A stretch of 6,165 bases of DNA. It comes from a virus. Under the pieces are notes generated by a model that was given only the letters and a program-made list of their open reading frames with translations, was not told the DNA's origin and searched no databases. The stretch covers positions 1 through 6,165 of IMG/VR virus record IMGVR_UViG_3300009609_000022, one strand, 5' to 3'. Below are positions 240-6,165 of the stretch, one piece after another (within the stretch, counting starts at the first letter, position 1; each line of letters starts with the position of its first letter). The position numbers were made by a program, and so were the translations under genes.

Positions 240-521
240 ATGGCGCTTCCCTTCGCTGGTTGGCTCCTGGCCGGTGCGATCCCTCTCGTCAAAAAGGCGC
301 TGATAGGTATCGGCATCGGCGTCATTACTTACGAGGGCGTGACTCAGGCGCTGAACTACGCCCGCGACCAGGTTGTCGCGTCCTGGGGGTTGTTGCCTGG
401 GAACGTCGCCCAGGTGCTTGCGCTCTTCGGCTTCAATGAGTTCTTCGGTATCGTCCTGGGTGCGATAGCGGCGCGTGCCGCGTTCACTGCAGTCGCCAGG
501 TTCGGCCGCATCACTTCATGA
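240..521 (+). CDS. pVI-like minor coat / membrane protein (DUF2523-like, the Ace position of CTX-type phages).
   Basis: 93 aa and very hydrophobic (AGWLLAGAIPLV, IGIGIGVI, VLALFGFNEFFGIVLGAIAA). It sits immediately upstream of, and ATGA-overlapped with, the Zot/pI gene, the conserved inovirus position. SD-like aaggggga lies upstream of ATG 240. Confidence 0.7.
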   Translation: MALPFAGWLLAGAIPLVKKALIGIGIGVITYEGVTQALNYARDQVVASWGLLPGNVAQVLALFGFNEFFGIVLGAIAARAAFTAVARFGRITS

Positions 522-1744
522 TCACGCTTATCACCGGGGGCAACGGGCTCGGTAAGACGGCCCTTGCTCTCTCGATGGCGCTTGAAGAAAAGGCGCGACC
601 GCTCTACGTGGTCGGCGTGAAGGATCTGTGCATACCGCATGAAATCGCGCCACCGATAGAGGAATGGACGGAGGTGGTTGATGATCCTTCTTACGTCGGC
701 GGCAAAAAGCTACGCTTCACGTTCCCGCCTAATTCGCTCATCATCATCGACGAGTGCCAGAGCATCTACCGGCCCAGGGCCGCGAGCTCGCGCGTTCCTG
801 ATTATGTGGCCGCGTTCGAGACGCATCGGCATGAGGGGCTGGACTTCTGGCTGATCACGCAGCATCCAGGGCTCCTGGATGCCAACGTGCGGAAGCTCGT
901 CCGGCGGCACATTCATTTGCGCGACACCTGGGCGGGCCGAAAGCTAATCGAGTGGCCCGAGCTCGGCGATCCGGAGTCCAGGGCTTCGCGTGAGCTCGCG
1001 GCGCAGCGGCGCTACAAGCTGCCGCGTCACGTTTTCGATAAATACACTTCGGCCCAGGTGCACACCAAGCTGCAGAAGCGGGTGCCCTGGTATGTGTATG
1101 TGTTTTTCCTGATGGTGTTTGTTTTCTTGGGTCTGATGGTCTACATCTATCGGAACATCTCCGCGAAGCTTGAGCCGGTGGCGGCGAGCTCTTCCACCAA
1201 GGCCTGGGCCAAGAAAGACGCGGGTTCGAGCTCGAGCGCGAGCGCGGGCGGGAAGGGTGCGCCGCTTACTCGCGCTCAGTGGGTTGCAGAGCGTGAGCCC
1301 AGGTTACCGGGGATTCCTCATACGGCGCCGGTCTATGACAAGGCGATGGAGGCGAGGGTGGCGCCTTTCCCGTCCGCTTGCGTTGTTCTCAAGGGCAAGT
1401 GCGGGTGCTATACGGATCAGGCGACCAGGCTGCATCTCCCTGATACCGTGTGTCGCGACATCGTTGCTAACGGTTTCTTCAATCCTACCGGTGTCGGTCG
1501 CGCCCGGGCTCATGGCGCGATCGGTGCGCCCCCCGTCGTCGCGCCGGTTTATGCGCCCCCTGTCGCGCCGGTTCCGGCCCCGAGCTCGCCGGCGCAGCCC
1601 GTTGCCGGTGAGGTCTATCACACCGGAGCTCCTGGCGGCTTCGAGATGGGGCCACCTGTCGGTGGTGGCGGATCGGGAGCGGGTGGCGGGTCTCAGGCGC
1701 CTGCGGCGCTGCCTGAACGCGCTTTTTCGCGTGGCGGGCACTGA
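518..1744 (+). CDS. Zot-like / pI morphogenesis (assembly) P-loop ATPase.
   Basis: Walker A GGNGLGKT (aa 7-14, nt 536-559). Walker B LIIIDECQ (aa 74-81, nt 737-760). Single TM segment PWYVYVFFLMVFVFLGLMVYIY (about nt 1085-1150). Then a periplasmic part with a Cys motif (CVVLKGKCGCYTDQATRL...C) and a Pro/Ala/Gly-rich tail. The start overlaps the upstream stop (ATGA at 518-521). Confidence 0.9.
   Translation: MITLITGGNGLGKTALALSMALEEKARPLYVVGVKDLCIPHEIAPPIEEWTEVVDDPSYVGGKKLRFTFPPNSLIIIDECQSIYRPRAASSRVPDYVAAFETHRHEGLDFWLITQHPGLLDANVRKLVRRHIHLRDTWAGRKLIEWPELGDPESRASRELAAQRRYKLPRHVFDKYTSAQVHTKLQKRVPWYVYVFFLMVFVFLGLMVYIYRNISAKLEPVAASSSTKAWAKKDAGSSSSASAGGKGAPLTRAQWVAEREPRLPGIPHTAPVYDKAMEARVAPFPSACVVLKGKCGCYTDQATRLHLPDTVCRDIVANGFFNPTGVGRARAHGAIGAPPVVAPVYAPPVAPVPAPSSPAQPVAGEVYHTGAPGGFEMGPPVGGGGSGAGGGSQAPAALPERAFSRGGH
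1538..1573 (+). repeat. 12-nt exact direct repeat gtcgcgccggtt at 1538-1549 and 1562-1573 (24-nt period) within the pI C-terminal tail.
   Basis: It is in frame and encodes VAPVYAPP / VAPVPAPS, a proline-rich octapeptide duplication. Confidence 0.8.
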
Positions 1745-1767: not shown

Positions 1768-1986
1768 TCACCTGTGGCGGCTCCGGTGGCGGCCTCTCAA
1801 GGCCAACCGGCTCATTGAGCGTTCGAGGGCATCCGCCTTTTCTGCTTTGATCTTCGCGGCGACGTTCCAGTACTTGATGTAGTATCGTCCGCGCCAGGAG
1901 CTCGGGTCGAAGCCTACTCTTTCCACCCATTCCTCGACTTCGCGGACTGTGACCTGCGGACTATCGGGCCACAATTCGAACTGCAT
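1768..1986 (-). CDS. Hypothetical 72-aa basic protein, distal gene of the minus-strand regulator operon.
   Basis: The ATG at 1986 lies 13 nt after the regulator stop (2000-2002). The sequence is non-repetitive and protein-like (MQFELWPDSPQVTVREVEEWVERVGFDPSSWRGRYYIKYWNVAAKIKAEKADALERS...) with an Arg/His-rich tail, and the third codon position is mostly G/C. No family was recognised and the SD is weak. Confidence 0.5.
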   Translation of the reverse strand: MQFELWPDSPQVTVREVEEWVERVGFDPSSWRGRYYIKYWNVAAKIKAEKADALERSMSRLALRGRHRSRHR

Positions 1987-1999
1987 CGCGCCAGCGATG

Positions 2000-2341
2000 C
2001 TATGCGGGCTTCATGTTTTTGTCTGTCAGGAATTCTCTGATGAGGGCTGTCAGGCGGTGCCTGAGCCATTTGACATAATATACAGTGACCCGCGTCATGT
2101 TCTGCGCGGCCTCAGCGGAGGGGAGCGTCTGCCAGGTGAGGAATGCCCCCGTTATCGTCACCAGGCACATCTTTCCCAGGAGCTTCAGTATTGCGGCCAT
2201 GTTGTCCGTTGATGGTTTCGTGATGCCGTTGCGCATCTGCGACACCGCACTGGCCGTCACTCCGAGGTACCGCGCGAGCTTGTTTCCGCTGCCCGCTTTC
2301 TCTATGGCCGCCGCTACGATCGGCTTGTAGTCGAACTTCAT
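2000..2341 (-). CDS. Cro/CI (Xre)-type HTH transcriptional regulator (putative phage repressor / immunity factor) with an atypical roughly 55-aa C-terminal extension.
   Basis: The N-terminal 55 aa carry a classic HTH: GSGNKLARYLGVTASAVSQMRNGITKPSTDNMAAILKLL. The gene is divergent from the rep operon. A G-run SD (gggggg) lies 7 nt upstream of the ATG on the minus strand. The C-terminal half (MCLVTITGAFLTWQTLP...VYYVKWLRHRLTALIREFL) is not part of a normal Cro fold. Confidence 0.8.
   Translation of the reverse strand: MKFDYKPIVAAAIEKAGSGNKLARYLGVTASAVSQMRNGITKPSTDNMAAILKLLGKMCLVTITGAFLTWQTLPSAEAAQNMTRVTVYYVKWLRHRLTALIREFLTDKNMKPA
2068..2095 (-). other. dif-like site (candidate attP for XerC/XerD-mediated integration).
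   Basis: The minus strand reads ACGCGGGTCAC TGTATA TTATGTCAAAT. E. coli dif reads GGTGCGCATAA TGTATA TTATGTTAAAT. The central region matches 6/6, the XerD arm 10/11 and the XerC arm only 2/11. It is an AT-rich island in a GC-rich gene. Confidence 0.65.
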
Positions 2342-2444: not shown

Positions 2445-2708
2445 ATGGCAAGGATGGGGGGTAAGGCGCGGGCTGAGGCGGATCAGCTTCCGCTGTTTGA
2501 CAATGAGCCACCGTTCGCCTGGTCGCTCGGTTCACCCCTTGTCCTGCCCCCCGCTACCGGCGCCCCCGGCGCCGGGGCGGGGGGGCGGCAAGGGCTTTAC
2601 GTCCCAGTTACACGTAAAGATAGTGCCACCGGTGACACTCGGCCCCTTCCGATCTCCCAGGGCTTCTGCCCCCTGTGCGCGGTATTCGGGCGCTGCCTGG
2701 GCTGCTGA
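2445..2708 (+). CDS. Hypothetical 87-aa protein, first ORF of the rightward operon. The C-terminus has CPLC-x5-CLGC. Coding status is uncertain.
   Basis: The ATG at 2445 follows a G8 run, and its leader GGGGGGCCGAA mirrors the leader of the divergent regulator gene. The third codon position is mostly G/C by eye. Against coding: there is a low-complexity PPATGAPGAGAGG stretch, and several strong DNA palindromes lie inside it that could instead be an origin. Confidence 0.4.
   Translation: MARMGGKARAEADQLPLFDNEPPFAWSLGSPLVLPPATGAPGAGAGGRQGLYVPVTRKDSATGDTRPLPISQGFCPLCAVFGRCLGC
2557..2639 (+). other. Cluster of three DNA palindromes/hairpins: candidate replication origin and/or packaging signal.
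   Basis: (1) ccggcgcc-ccc-ggcgccgg, 8-bp GC stem, 2557-2575. (2) ctttacgt-N9-acgtaaag, 8-bp stem, 2595-2619, in a local AT-rich island. (3) An 18-bp imperfect palindrome agtgCcaccggtgAcact at 2622-2639. All lie just upstream of the rep gene, in the only extended region not covered by a confidently called gene. Confidence 0.4.
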
Positions 2709-3718
2709 TCGTGTCCGCTCTGCCGCTATTCGTGGACTGGTTGACGATGCGGCAGGATCATCCCGAAGGCGGCTTGCCAGTCCTCAACGGCGGGCACGTT
2801 ATGGCCGTGGACAGCGACGGGGCTGTCGAATGGCACACCGATCGGCGGCTCGGCTTCGAGGGGTCGTTCGACTCCCGCGTCGAGCTCCGTTGCGATGGCT
2901 ACTCGGTGGAGTTCTCCGGGAACATCGCTCGCTACAACCGGCGAGATAACCTGTTCGGCTACACCTGGCCGGAGACGATCTACCGGGTTAACTCGCTTCT
3001 CAATCTTTTTTCACTTCCACCGTTCACGTCCGGGAAGCTTTTCCGGTTCGCTGACAAAGGATGGACATGGACCGGTGCCAGGGCCTCACGTATCGACATT
3101 ACCGTGAACTATTCCTGTTCCACTGCCGATGCACTGGCCGCACTCATGCGCTCACTATCGGGGCACCACATCGGCAGGCAGAAGGGCAAGTTGTCTCCCG
3201 ATGGTATGACCGTGGAATACGGGCGGGGCTCCCGTTATGTGTACGGCAAGTTCTACTCGAAATCGGCGGAGCTCGTGGCGCACCGCGGTCGCAAGTCCGG
3301 CGCGCACGTTGACCAGGAGGTCGTTGATTTCTGCGACCGCCTCGGCGTCGGGCGCGAGGAATTCACGCTCAAGAGCCGGTTCCTCACGCAGAACAATCTC
3401 GCTTACCTGGGCGGGATCACACACGAGGCGCTTGTCTCGGTCTACTACCACCGCTCACAGCTACGGAGGTTGGGCGCCGTGAAATACGAAAGCTTGGAAG
3501 GGCTGCCGCGCCATTTGCGGGCGACGTATTGCTGCTGGCGCGATGGAATGCCGCAGCAGATCAGCAGGCGCACGCTCTACCGGCACCGCGCCGCGCTACT
3601 CGAATATGGCGTGGACATATCCATTCCATCGAACGTGCGCTCTATGCCGATCAAGGTGCGCCAGGTGGAAGTAGCCGCGCTCGAAGCGCCGTCCTGGTAT
3701 CTGCGGAAGTTCGGTTGA
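2675..3718 (+). CDS. Rolling-circle replication initiation protein, filamentous-phage gpII / CRI family.
   Basis: The N-terminal signature FVDWLT...GG.V..VDSDGAVEW......FEGSFDSRV.....G..VEFSGNIARYNRRDNLFGY is typical of the gpII/X (CRI) family, and the gene sits directly upstream of the gpV-like gene. The start is uncertain. 2675 is a GTG. GTG 2711 lies 2 nt after the ORF87 stop. GTG 2732 would give the MDWLT N-terminus typical of the family. Confidence 0.85.
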   Translation: MRGIRALPGLLIVSALPLFVDWLTMRQDHPEGGLPVLNGGHVMAVDSDGAVEWHTDRRLGFEGSFDSRVELRCDGYSVEFSGNIARYNRRDNLFGYTWPETIYRVNSLLNLFSLPPFTSGKLFRFADKGWTWTGARASRIDITVNYSCSTADALAALMRSLSGHHIGRQKGKLSPDGMTVEYGRGSRYVYGKFYSKSAELVAHRGRKSGAHVDQEVVDFCDRLGVGREEFTLKSRFLTQNNLAYLGGITHEALVSVYYHRSQLRRLGAVKYESLEGLPRHLRATYCCWRDGMPQQISRRTLYRHRAALLEYGVDISIPSNVRSMPIKVRQVEVAALEAPSWYLRKFG

Positions 3719-4799: not shown

Positions 4800-6165
4800 A
4801 AAAAGCTTGCCAGGATTCGCCAGGAGCGCGCCGCGGTCGGTCGTTGATGCCGTGGTATGTCGGTTTTTTCGAGTGGGCGAGTCTCGCGTTTCTTTTCGGG
4901 CTCCTGGTCGCGCCGTCGATTTCGTTCGCCACCTTTCCGGCGAGCTCGCCGCCGTCGCCGATTAATCGCAGCACGAACGGCGTTTACTCGTATACGTGGA
5001 ACCCGTGGGCGGGGTGCTCTGCAAGTGGGACGAAAAGCTCTGTCGGTGAAGTTCGGGCATTGACACAGGCATGCGCGAATGCCAACGGTGAGTTCGGCGG
5101 GCAGACGGGCACAGTGAATCCTCATACTTCGACGCAGTTTGTCGAGATTTATTTCGAGAATACGAATCGCCAGGTGAACATTACTTCACCCTGGGCGGCG
5201 TGTCCTGCGGGCTACACCGTGACCGGCACTGGCGCGAATTACGCCACGTGCACGGCTAACGCGGGCTCGCTCACGTGTCCTTCTAATGCAACCCTTAGCG
5301 GAAGTGATTGCAATTGCAATGCGAATTTTGTGCAGCAAGGGGCCGGCGCGGGAGCTACGTGCCAGGCGCAGTCGAGCTACTGCCAGGACTTGTCGACGAC
5401 GGGAACGGGCAAGACGACCATCACCACGTTCGTGGGCTATGACACGAATGGCGACGGCCTGGCTGATGTGTCGAGCGGCATCGGCTTCGGATCGCGCAAC
5501 GCGAACGGCTGCAAGGCGATTCTCGCGTTGATGGACCCTCAAAATTGCTTCAGCTACGACGACGCGCCCACGAAAATCTATTGCACTTCGACGTTCAGCT
5601 ACACGGGTGACGTTGCCACCGGTGGCGATCCGGGGCCTGATACGCCGAACGGATCGAATCCATGCCCGACTGGTCAGGGGCTCGCCCAGGTCAACGGGAT
5701 TTCCCGTTGTCTGCCCACTGGGGGGCCGCCCACGATTGCGCCCGCTCCCGCGACTACTCAGCAGACCACCGGCACCGTCACGAATGGCGACGGTTCCACG
5801 ACGACGACGACGACGACCACGAACGGCACGACGACGACCACGCAGACCACGAATTGCAACGCCGACAAAACTCTGTGCACCACGTCTACGACGTCTACGC
5901 AAAGCGGCGCGTCTACCGGGCAGGCGGGGAACAGCGACCAGGCGCAGTTCTGCCGAGACAATCCCACGGCTGCGATGTGCAAGCCGGTCAACGATTTTTG
6001 CGCTCAACCGGAGAATGCGGGCAAGGTGCAATGTCTTGACCAGGGCGAATGGGCCACAGCAGAAAACTTCGCCACCCAGGAGCGCGGCACCGGGAGCATT
6101 ACTCCGGTCTCGATGGGCGGGGGCGGGTCATGTCCCGCAGACATTCCGCTTCCGAAGGGGCTCAC
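4796..6165 (+). CDS. pIII-like adsorption / minor coat protein, 5' portion. The gene continues through the circular junction to 235, for 493 aa in total.
   Basis: I translated codon by codon from ATG 4796 (alternative in-frame ATG at 4847) and found no stop before the window end. Signal peptide ...WASLAFLFGLLVAPSISFA. The ectodomain is Cys-rich (about 20 Cys). A Thr/Gly-rich linker reads GSTTTTTTTNGTTTTTQTTN...CTTTSTTSTQ. The C-terminal anchor is in 2-235. It is absent from the ORF track because it runs off the end. Confidence 0.85.
   Translation, partial: MKKACQDSPGARRGRSLMPWYVGFFEWASLAFLFGLLVAPSISFATFPASSPPSPINRSTNGVYSYTWNPWAGCSASGTKSSVGEVRALTQACANANGEFGGQTGTVNPHTSTQFVEIYFENTNRQVNITSPWAACPAGYTVTGTGANYATCTANAGSLTCPSNATLSGSDCNCNANFVQQGAGAGATCQAQSSYCQDLSTTGTGKTTITTFVGYDTNGDGLADVSSGIGFGSRNANGCKAILALMDPQNCFSYDDAPTKIYCTSTFSYTGDVATGGDPGPDTPNGSNPCPTGQGLAQVNGISRCLPTGGPPTIAPAPATTQQTTGTVTNGDGSTTTTTTTTNGTTTTTQTTNCNADKTLCTTSTTSTQSGASTGQAGNSDQAQFCRDNPTAAMCKPVNDFCAQPENAGKVQCLDQGEWATAENFATQERGTGSITPVSMGGGGSCPADIPLPKGL
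5798..5848 (+). repeat. Threonine-codon microsatellite-like tract: (ACG)5 ACC ACG AAC GGC (ACG)3 ACC ACG CAG ACC ACG.
   Basis: Read directly from the sequence. It is in frame with the pIII-like gene and encodes TTTTTTTNGTTTTTQTT. Confidence 0.9.
6043..6165. repeat. Terminal direct repeat, copy 2 (identical to 1-123).
   Basis: Same evidence as copy 1. Confidence 0.95.

Follow-up and report, generated by a model that had tools for sequence, protein, structure and literature searches.

Xanthomonas filamentous phages integrate by means of the host recombinases XerC and XerD (XerCD), and in one of them, XacF1, the phage attachment site (attP) lies within ORF12 and integration may split ORF12 and alter its function (PMC4076744). 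Integration of φRSS0 reduces ORF13 from 156 to 130 aa, and separate roles have been proposed for the free and prophage forms (PMC3816273). A 2025 study described a repressor-attP-XafT/P15 module with a 17-bp 'left-armed' attP, in which both genes become prophage termini (PMC12715192). Here we analyze a 6,165-nt stretch of viral DNA, IMG/VR record IMGVR_UViG_3300009609_000022 (the whole stretch is called the window), in which a helix-turn-helix (HTH) regulator gene contains a dif-like attP in its 3' part and is followed by a small open reading frame (ORF), ORF72. The original prediction for this stretch was that integration at the site would rewrite the regulator C-terminus and detach ORF72, which would amount to a switch between two states. 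Since XacF1 ORF12, φRSS0 ORF13 and RstR-attP-XafT are precedents, the idea that integration splits such a unit is not new, which weakens that interpretation; the layout is already documented, and the window adds a very divergent member, not a new principle. We consider it likely that the module is an integration-and-immunity unit of a filamentous phage that uses host XerCD, consisting of a repressor with a one-armed attP and then ORF72. The parts of the module, in the direction of reading, are:

2000 to 2341, minus strand: XRE/Cro-CI-type HTH regulator of 113 aa (ORF call, Pfam HTH_3, AlphaFold2)
2174 to 2326, minus strand: N-terminal HTH DNA-binding domain, about residues 6–56 (HTH_3; helices 6–16, 19–26 and 30–37)
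2126 to 2209, minus strand: partly hydrophobic long helix, residues 45–72 (...AILKLLGKMCLVTITGAFL...; AlphaFold2, Kyte-Doolittle)
2085 to 2095, minus strand: degenerate XerC-side arm, sense ACGCGGGTCAC, with 3 of 11 matches to ATTTCGCATAA
2079 to 2084, minus strand: central (crossover) region, sense TGTATA, overlapping codons 86–88
2068 to 2078, minus strand: XerD arm, encoding Y89-V90-K91 and the first base of W92
2003 to 2068, minus strand: basic helical tail of 22 aa (WLRHRLTALIREFLTDKNMKPA, net charge +3; AlphaFold2 helix 76–106)
1987 to 1999, minus strand: 13-nt spacer from the regulator TAG to the ORF72 ATG, with no terminator-like site
1768 to 1986, minus strand: ORF72, 72 aa, from a family of small conserved proteins, PHROG 10187 (function unassigned)

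On the plus strand, positions 2068–2095 read ATTTGACATAA-TATACA-GTGACCCGCGT, in which the XerD-type arm is perfect and the central region is the reverse complement of the E. coli-type TGTATA. The attP occupies regulator codons 86–92, and the crossover region had been correctly placed at about codon 87. Codon mapping also bears out that a crossover in the central region would retain ...TVYYVK and swap out the last 22 residues (W92–A113). The site is non-random, as the window contains a single copy of the 17-mer TGTATATTATGTNAAAT and none of 200 shuffles produced a match even with 2 mismatches permitted. The exact central region plus XerD arm is present in 73 IMG/VR contigs, mostly of inovirus size, and in about 25 of these the 17-mer is part of the 3' end of a gene for an HTH regulator that has a hydrophobic segment. 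The layout in these contigs is an N-terminal HTH, the hydrophobic segment, often a P-S/T-P-x-E-A-A-like motif, the site and a tail, and this architecture is also found in three studied phages. Across relatives the 17-mer is translated in three frames (CILCQI, VYYVK and LYIMSN), indicating that selection acts on the site DNA and not on the encoded residues.

At regulator-embedded sites the XerC side is degenerate; elsewhere, the same 17-mer is found behind the canonical XerC arms ATTTCGCATAA, AGTGCGCATAA and ATTGCGCATAA, which identifies each of those sites as a true dif or a junction. Relatives have an identical central region in their host dif and junction sites. Among 21 regulator-embedded attPs, the XerC-side arm has G(–6) in 12, A(–4), C(–3) and C(–1) in 13 each, and A/T(–2) in 19. 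This consensus is weak and non-canonical (the canonical arm there is CATAA) and suggests that the degenerate arm is a non-canonical yet selected half-site. An attP of the CTX type, with two inverted sites that fold in single-stranded DNA (ssDNA), was ruled out as the window has a single dif-like site. In common with mobile elements that integrate by way of Xer (IMEXs), the window has a dif-like attP with an 11-bp arm and a 6-bp central region, judged against the dif sites of other contigs, and it encodes no integrase or recombinase, with no recombinase Pfam domain in the gene table of the 6-kb genome.

The regulator is a short form of the regulator-with-embedded-attP architecture known from φLf/Cf1c, φRSS0 and many uncultured inoviruses, having the HTH, the hydrophobic segment, the attP at the 3' end and the basic tail. 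Its coordinates and its division into an HTH and an extension hold as originally predicted, and Pfam HTH_3 matches residues 21–56 at 31.4 bits (cut-off 23). In the single-sequence AlphaFold2 model (predicted local distance difference test score, pLDDT, 84), the HTH is followed by long helices at residues 45–72 and 76–106, consistent with the hydrophobic stretch and helical C-terminus that had been read from the sequence, and the tail forms half of a confident predicted helical hairpin. When this model was used in a Foldseek search, only XRE/Cro/C-protein HTH domains were matched, and not significantly. The maximum Kyte-Doolittle 19-residue mean of the regulator is 1.74, within a family range of 1.3–2.2, and every regulator family member has a counterpart of the hydrophobic segment. 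Sequence homology past the HTH was demonstrated to one relative alone, the L087 regulator, which is 36% identical over residues 1–107 in an alignment that covers the hydrophobic helix and the tail. Neither of these two regulators matched Pfam DUF3693 at E ≤ 1; the scores elsewhere are 58 bits in φLf-UK, 30 in L016 and 24 in L015. In tblastn searches of 50,697 phage records, the window regulator was matched at the HTH level only (Salmonella phage cI) and the L087 regulator had no match.

We compared the module with the described phages. XacF1, Cf1c and φLf-UK resemble the window in having Zot on the plus strand, a small protein and an HTH regulator on the minus strand, and a dif-like core in the 3' part of the regulator. 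Their regulators (ORF12, cp8 and 18.2K; DUF3693) carry an embedded attP and are followed by ORF11 or PSB15 (DUF3653); in the φLf-UK annotation, the xerC/D core (5393–5407) lies inside the XRE-HTH gene (5299–5844) and PSB15 is directly downstream. The φLf-UK regulator is built like that of the window, with the HTH, a hydrophobic segment, site-encoded residues and a basic tail (YVRRLLAWLAAAI...). In contrast, the Xanthomonas attP retains the XerC arm and central region (TATACA-TTATGCGAA), whereas the window attP retains the XerD arm, and the window regulator lacks the DUF3693 linker and is followed by a gene that is not DUF3653. φRSS0 ORF13 is likewise a reverse-oriented HTH regulator with a hydrophobic segment and a PSPAEAAP motif (LPSAEAAQ in the window); the φRSS0 attP and dif share the XerD arm and central region, and ORF13 has the basic tail ARRLRERLQQALRAV. 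However, the φRSS0 central region is of the GATAAA rather than the TATACA type, the site is in another frame, BLAST similarity between the two regulators is confined to the HTH (E = 5e-5), and no ORF72-family gene was detected downstream of ORF13. The RstR/P16-attP-XafT/P15 modules of CTX-I and PM2-like phages share with the window a repressor, a dif-like attP and a small gene in a leftward unit that is split to the prophage termini, and their left-armed 17-bp attP (ATTTAACATAA+TATAAA) is of the same type as ATTTGACATAA+TATACA in the window. Their attP is intergenic, whereas that of the window is within the repressor coding sequence.

To compare episomal with integrated forms, we used 10 episomal genomes, namely eight regulator-bearing contigs whose terminal repeats indicate circular episomal genomes, φLf-UK and φRSS0. 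All 10 encode a post-site tail of 12–33 aa with a net charge of +2 to +6, in whichever frame the site is read. In contrast, in copies that look integrated, namely the isolate-derived uncultivated virus genomes (UViGs) L016/L064, as well as L036, L072 and L057, the regulator stops 0–6 aa past the site, and L026 and L079 encode the same regulator ending as L016/L064. In L072, the left end has a site with a canonical arm, and at the right end a 98-aa regulator runs into the degenerate arm, TGTATA and the XerD arm and stops two codons on; when we joined the two ends, a regulator with its basic tail (...SRMLRRLFRQCEL...) was restored. The L005 prophage lies on a 95-kb contig; one of its borders reads ATTAATTGCATAA-TGTATA-(degenerate) and the opposite one (phage arm)-TGTATA-TTATGTTAAAT, with an additional half-site within its 154-aa regulator. 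L057 has its regulator at one prophage end and its ORF72 homologue, which is co-directional with Zot, at the other.

When we scanned metagenomes with the closest ORF72 subgroup, we found eight loci. The closest relative of the window module, L086/L087, has a 127-aa regulator with TVYYVK in the same frame, a degenerate XerC side and the tail LLNRLRRWLSG..., then an ORF72 homologue (61–68% identical) that overlaps the regulator end, then a convergent Zot (38% identical). The order regulator, attP, ORF72 is also seen in L015 and L067. In L088, L089, L090 and L093, a canonical XerC arm (...GCGTATAA) is followed by TGTATA, the XerD arm, an orphaned tail remnant (SVMRRLVTG..., SLLRRLTEG... or SWIARLRLR...) and then an ORF72 homologue. 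These four loci are the attL-type junctions that the prediction called for, at which canonical dif is regenerated and ORF72 is parted from the regulator. Host genes precede them; those upstream in L089 are chromosomal (TatD and an ankyrin-repeat protein), and TatD flanks the L005 prophage too. In L020 and L063, an ORF72 homologue abuts a full dif at the prophage edge, and the orientation of the site is reversed, as it is in φLf. Junctions of integrated forms are thus found in relatives (L005, L072, L057, L088–L090 and L093), with no integrated copy of this phage among them, and the claimed geometry of a truncated regulator with ORF72 at the opposite end agrees with these relatives.

Some related loci have other contents. 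ORF72-like genes lie beside a canonical chromosomal dif in L089 (1345–1983), L092 (2–300) and L090 (93–470), with TatD and an ankyrin-repeat gene upstream and with an ORC/CDC6-like ATPase, a CptA-type toxin and no inovirus genes downstream; the L089 ORF is lengthened to 178 aa and has a hydrophobic segment. Such loci could be prophage ends in decay or a small element integrated at dif. In many of the IMG/VR contigs with the 17-mer (both ends of L072, L057 at 6504–7004, L030, L047 and L022, among others), a DUF3653 (XafT/PSB15-like) gene stands right after the XerD arm of dif, and L072 resembles several dif-integrated elements arrayed in tandem, in each of which the site is followed by a short basic peptide and a DUF3653 gene.

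ORF72 begins 81 nt past the XerD arm and, as predicted, 13 nt past the regulator stop; in relatives, the gap to the regulator is 4 nt (L067) or the genes overlap (L015, L087 and φLf-UK). The encoded protein has a net charge of +5 and an isoelectric point of 10.1, with an acidic N-terminal and a basic C-terminal half, and the G+C content at third codon positions (0.75) is like that of real phage genes, compared with 0.47–0.57 in the other sense frames. In an exhaustive phmmer search we found 17 representative clusters, four of them with full-length matches at 49–58% identity. An alignment of 18 sequences has invariant L5, W20, R32, Y36 and K45 and a core of about 55 aa, (D/E)L(F/W)..xPVT..E(V/I)..W(V/I)...SWR..YY(I/V).HWNVAEKI.AAK; past the core, the tails vary and are often basic and rich in Pro and Arg. 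Homologues are found 45–110 nt from a dif-like site at 10 or more loci, and wherever the gene occurs it is placed between the Zot end of the phage and the site. ORF72 is, judging from these comparisons, a real, conserved and attP-linked gene. The earlier statement that ORF72 has no motif is right for curated databases, as there was no match in Pfam (tested on 7 family members), PADLOC or NCBIfam; it does not stand in so far as ORF72 belongs to a conserved family, PHROG 10187 being the only database match. Searches of PDB sequences with the family profile, of 50,697 phage records by tblastn with ORF72 and two further family members, and of viral contigs with alignment A5 gave no match. One of the phmmer matches, P0118 (303 aa), is built with three repeats in tandem (...KLWEENPQITGAEMEQALKEKGF...TYYNWLKSF...), which match HTH_Tnp_Tc3_2 and bear a weak similarity to the ORF72 core (E = 6e-6); this hints that the core could be an HTH-like DNA-binding unit.

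In local hidden Markov model searches of all fetched loci, the slot after attP held either a DUF3653 or an ORF72-family protein, never both in one element. Two DUF3653 proteins have described roles. XafT of TLCφ has been demonstrated to activate XerD, with DUF3653 genes directly beside dif, and PSB15 of φLf-UK binds the packaging signal and has a basic helix that binds cardiolipin. ORF72 differs from XafT in having neither a DUF3653 nor an HTH_XRE domain. It is like PSB15 in being a small protein just downstream of an attP-bearing regulator, and where PSB15 has an N-terminal motif rich in aromatic residues, then a helix and a basic Pro/Arg-rich tail, the ORF72 family has conserved W/Y and variable basic Pro/Arg-rich C-termini; however, ORF72 lacks the PSB15 motifs WAGFXF, LTG and TPE, and the likeness is one of position and composition, not of sequence homology. 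When the ORF72 family was aligned with DUF3653 including PSB15, homology was not detectable (hhalign probability 0.1%). The equivalent position of ORF72, XafT and PSB15 gives two candidate roles, XerD activator and packaging-signal binder, and by this analogy ORF72 may be a functional analogue of the DUF3653 proteins.

The window as a whole is a circular inovirus genome of about 6.04 kb: the 6165 bases are a circularly permuted contig of about 6040 nt in which positions 1–123 recur at the end. By ORF calls, Pfam and the gene table, the inovirus gene set is complete, and all called genes are inovirus core genes, the regulator or ORF72. Beyond the module we found:

518 to 1744, plus strand: Zot/pI assembly ATPase (Pfam Zot, 58.7 bits), convergent with ORF72 and forming the other boundary of the module
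2342 to 2444, no strand assigned: divergent control region separating the regulator from ORF87/Rep; its inverted and direct repeats are candidate operators
2747 to 3718 (gene table): G2P-type replication initiator, Rep
Other genes: a small protein of ssDNA-binding-protein size, a Phage_Coat_B major coat protein and a DUF2523 pVI-like protein
An ORF of adsorption-protein size, 476 aa

The convergent order of Zot and ORF72 is repeated in L086. Within the 476-aa ORF, a Thr/Gly-rich low-complexity linker (...TTTTTTTNGTTTTTQTTN..., window about 5700–5900) is typical of pIII-like receptor-binding proteins. In the control region, we found a perfect 11-nt inverted repeat (TTCGGCCCCCC / GGGGGGCCGAA, 2344–2354 / 2435–2445), a 10-nt palindrome (AGCGATGCTT / AAGCATCGCT, arms 2405–2414 / 2422–2431), a 9-nt inverted repeat (2376–2384 / 2458–2466) and, by eye, two copies of TTGAC(t/aa)GGGTTTAG; the repeats at 2342–2466 are candidate operators or origin elements. 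ORF87 (2445–2708, plus strand, 87 aa) overlaps the Rep start, and its residues 37–66 (...GLYVPVTRKDSATGDT...) are weakly conserved just before Rep in L010/L011, L005–L007, L004 and L008/L009. ORF87 could encode a conserved small protein, or the conservation could instead be that of a DNA element, for example the origin.

The only other copies of this phage are two circular metagenome contigs (L001 and L002). A megablast search for near-identical DNA among deposited phages found no match, the identity of Rep to any deposited phage is at most 35%, and a word-indexed homology search with the regulator and ORF72 returned self-matches only. Many relatives of Rep at 55–72% identity are in Betaproteobacteria (Sulfuritalea, Georgfuchsia, Nitrosomonas, Castellaniella and Oxalobacter), some of them on chromosomal contigs, which points to a betaproteobacterial host. 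A Rep-based locus search in viral contigs found nothing. A scan of genome contigs found one prophage in a Sulfuritalea metagenome-assembled genome (L004), whose sequence ends 738 nt upstream of Rep and has no dif-like match, so that it is uninformative for the module. In L008/L009 (17622–18209), a prophage with a 65%-identical Rep relative has a serine resolvase, a ParB-like gene and a secretin and no dif-like site, indicating that Rep and lysogeny modules are inherited separately; the replication module is common to Xer-dependent and recombinase-dependent inoviruses.

We propose that host XerC and XerD would recombine attP with the chromosomal dif by a crossover in the 6-bp central region. 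At the prophage end with the non-canonical XerC side, the repressor would run up to ...TVYY and be truncated or re-tailed, with the host DNA supplying the XerD arm, most likely encoding VK again, and then codons to the next stop. At the other end, a canonical dif would be regenerated from a XerC arm of the host, the central region and the XerD arm of the phage, and the orphaned 22-codon tail and ORF72 would lie beside it, severed from the repressor promoter. This particular phage probably integrates in this way. The regulator and ORF72 are presumably co-transcribed, given their spacing and the lack of a terminator-like site between them, and the full-length and truncated repressors may act differently. 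The constant positive charge of the tail, its place as half of a predicted hairpin and the cardiolipin-binding basic helix of PSB15 together suggest that the tail could function in oligomerization or membrane association. Our guess is that ORF72 is an accessory factor for Xer recombination or, alternatively, for packaging or assembly, needed in the episomal state.

A further reading, which we regard as rather improbable, is that the ORF72 family is a new attP-linked accessory factor made by the episome only and that, with the loss of the tail, integration acts as a two-output switch between productive and silent states. The attP lies between ORF72 and the repressor promoter, so ORF72 would be expressed from the episome only; as an accessory factor for one-armed dif-like sites, it could then activate Xer or set directionality, or act as a checkpoint in packaging. 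The original interpretation is supported in part: the comparative data bear out its geometry, and the switch function is putative. Of the outcomes that had been named as refuting it, none was seen: conservation of ORF72 holds at the protein level, and the closest relative shares the extension and tail of the regulator. Several observations weigh against the proposed module and its mechanism. An integrated copy of this exact phage was not found, the phage being known only from the two ~6-kb circular contigs, and no protein with words shared with the window regulator was found among 5.8 billion proteins. A scan of 1600–2750 for sigma-70-like promoters predicted none, but the scan is uninformative, and co-transcription of the regulator and ORF72 is based solely on spacing. 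The single-sequence AlphaFold2 model of ORF72 has a pLDDT of 57 and is unusable for a fold search. PSB15 is dispensable for φLf integration, so the slot it shares with ORF72 does not dictate an Xer function, and the ORF72-like genes beside dif in L089 and L092, having no inovirus genes downstream, would be remnants or belong to other, small elements. That the two states yield functionally different regulator isoforms and different ORF72 expression would follow from the gene order, and we count this step as a weak point.

It is possible, although we think it doubtful, that attP is functional but its position in the regulator is mere genome compaction, with a dispensable tail, equivalent isoforms and a detachment of ORF72 that has no regulatory meaning. 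Such compaction fits with tails that are poorly conserved (12 to 33 aa), with the three frames in which the site is read and its residues hence not selected, and with the intergenic attP of the PM2 and CTX-I modules, which also means that truncation may be incidental. It fits as well with L057, where the regulator stops inside the XerC arm, ahead of the crossover, so that embedding is not universal, and where ORF72, whose orientation varies, is convergent with the regulator. Yet all 10 episomal genomes retain a positively charged tail, the window tail aligns with that of L087 and is predicted to form half of the hairpin, and the embedding recurs in Xanthomonas, Ralstonia and many uncultured betaproteobacterial phages, suggesting that it is maintained. 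We find it quite unlikely that the dif-like site of this phage is a relic or has another use, such as Xer resolution of replicative-form multimers, in a phage that is solely episomal. All known contigs of the phage are circular and episomal and the XerC-side arm is poor, as this would require, but the match is perfect in the XerD arm and central region, integrated relatives exist whose XerC sides are just as degenerate (L072 and the L016 group), close ORF72 relatives adjoin regenerated dif sites, and φRSS0 integrates experimentally although all it has in common with dif is the XerD arm, the central region and a single additional base. The suggestion that the regulator and ORF72 are an antitoxin-toxin or superinfection-exclusion pair unrelated to integration found no support and is, in our view, very improbable indeed. 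Such pairs commonly consist of an HTH protein and then a small basic one, φRSS0 ORF13 was reported by Yamada to be unclonable under lacP, which hints at regulator toxicity, and the regulator has a Pfam YdaS_toxin match; however, that match is below threshold (24.6 bits, cut-off 30) and falls on the Cro-like HTH itself, and the matches of the regulator in toxin-antitoxin and defence models are at the HTH level only (YdaS and the N-terminus of RmrA). ORF72 matches none of the curated databases named above, and its family is tied to attP, remaining next to dif even where the regulator is missing or lies at the opposite prophage end and alternating with DUF3653 proteins, whose known roles are in Xer activation or packaging.

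Taken together, these comparisons indicate that uncultured betaproteobacterial inoviruses widely carry a dif-like attP inside the 3' end of the repressor gene, an arrangement upheld at the DNA level in all three frames. The positive tail, which is kept in episomes and lost on integration across the family, gives the published two-isoform hypothesis a testable footing, and beside attP a second, non-homologous protein family alternates with DUF3653 (XafT/PSB15). If ORF72 is indeed an Xer activation or assembly factor, the range of ways in which mobile elements hijack XerCD would be wider and the prediction of IMEX borders would be improved.

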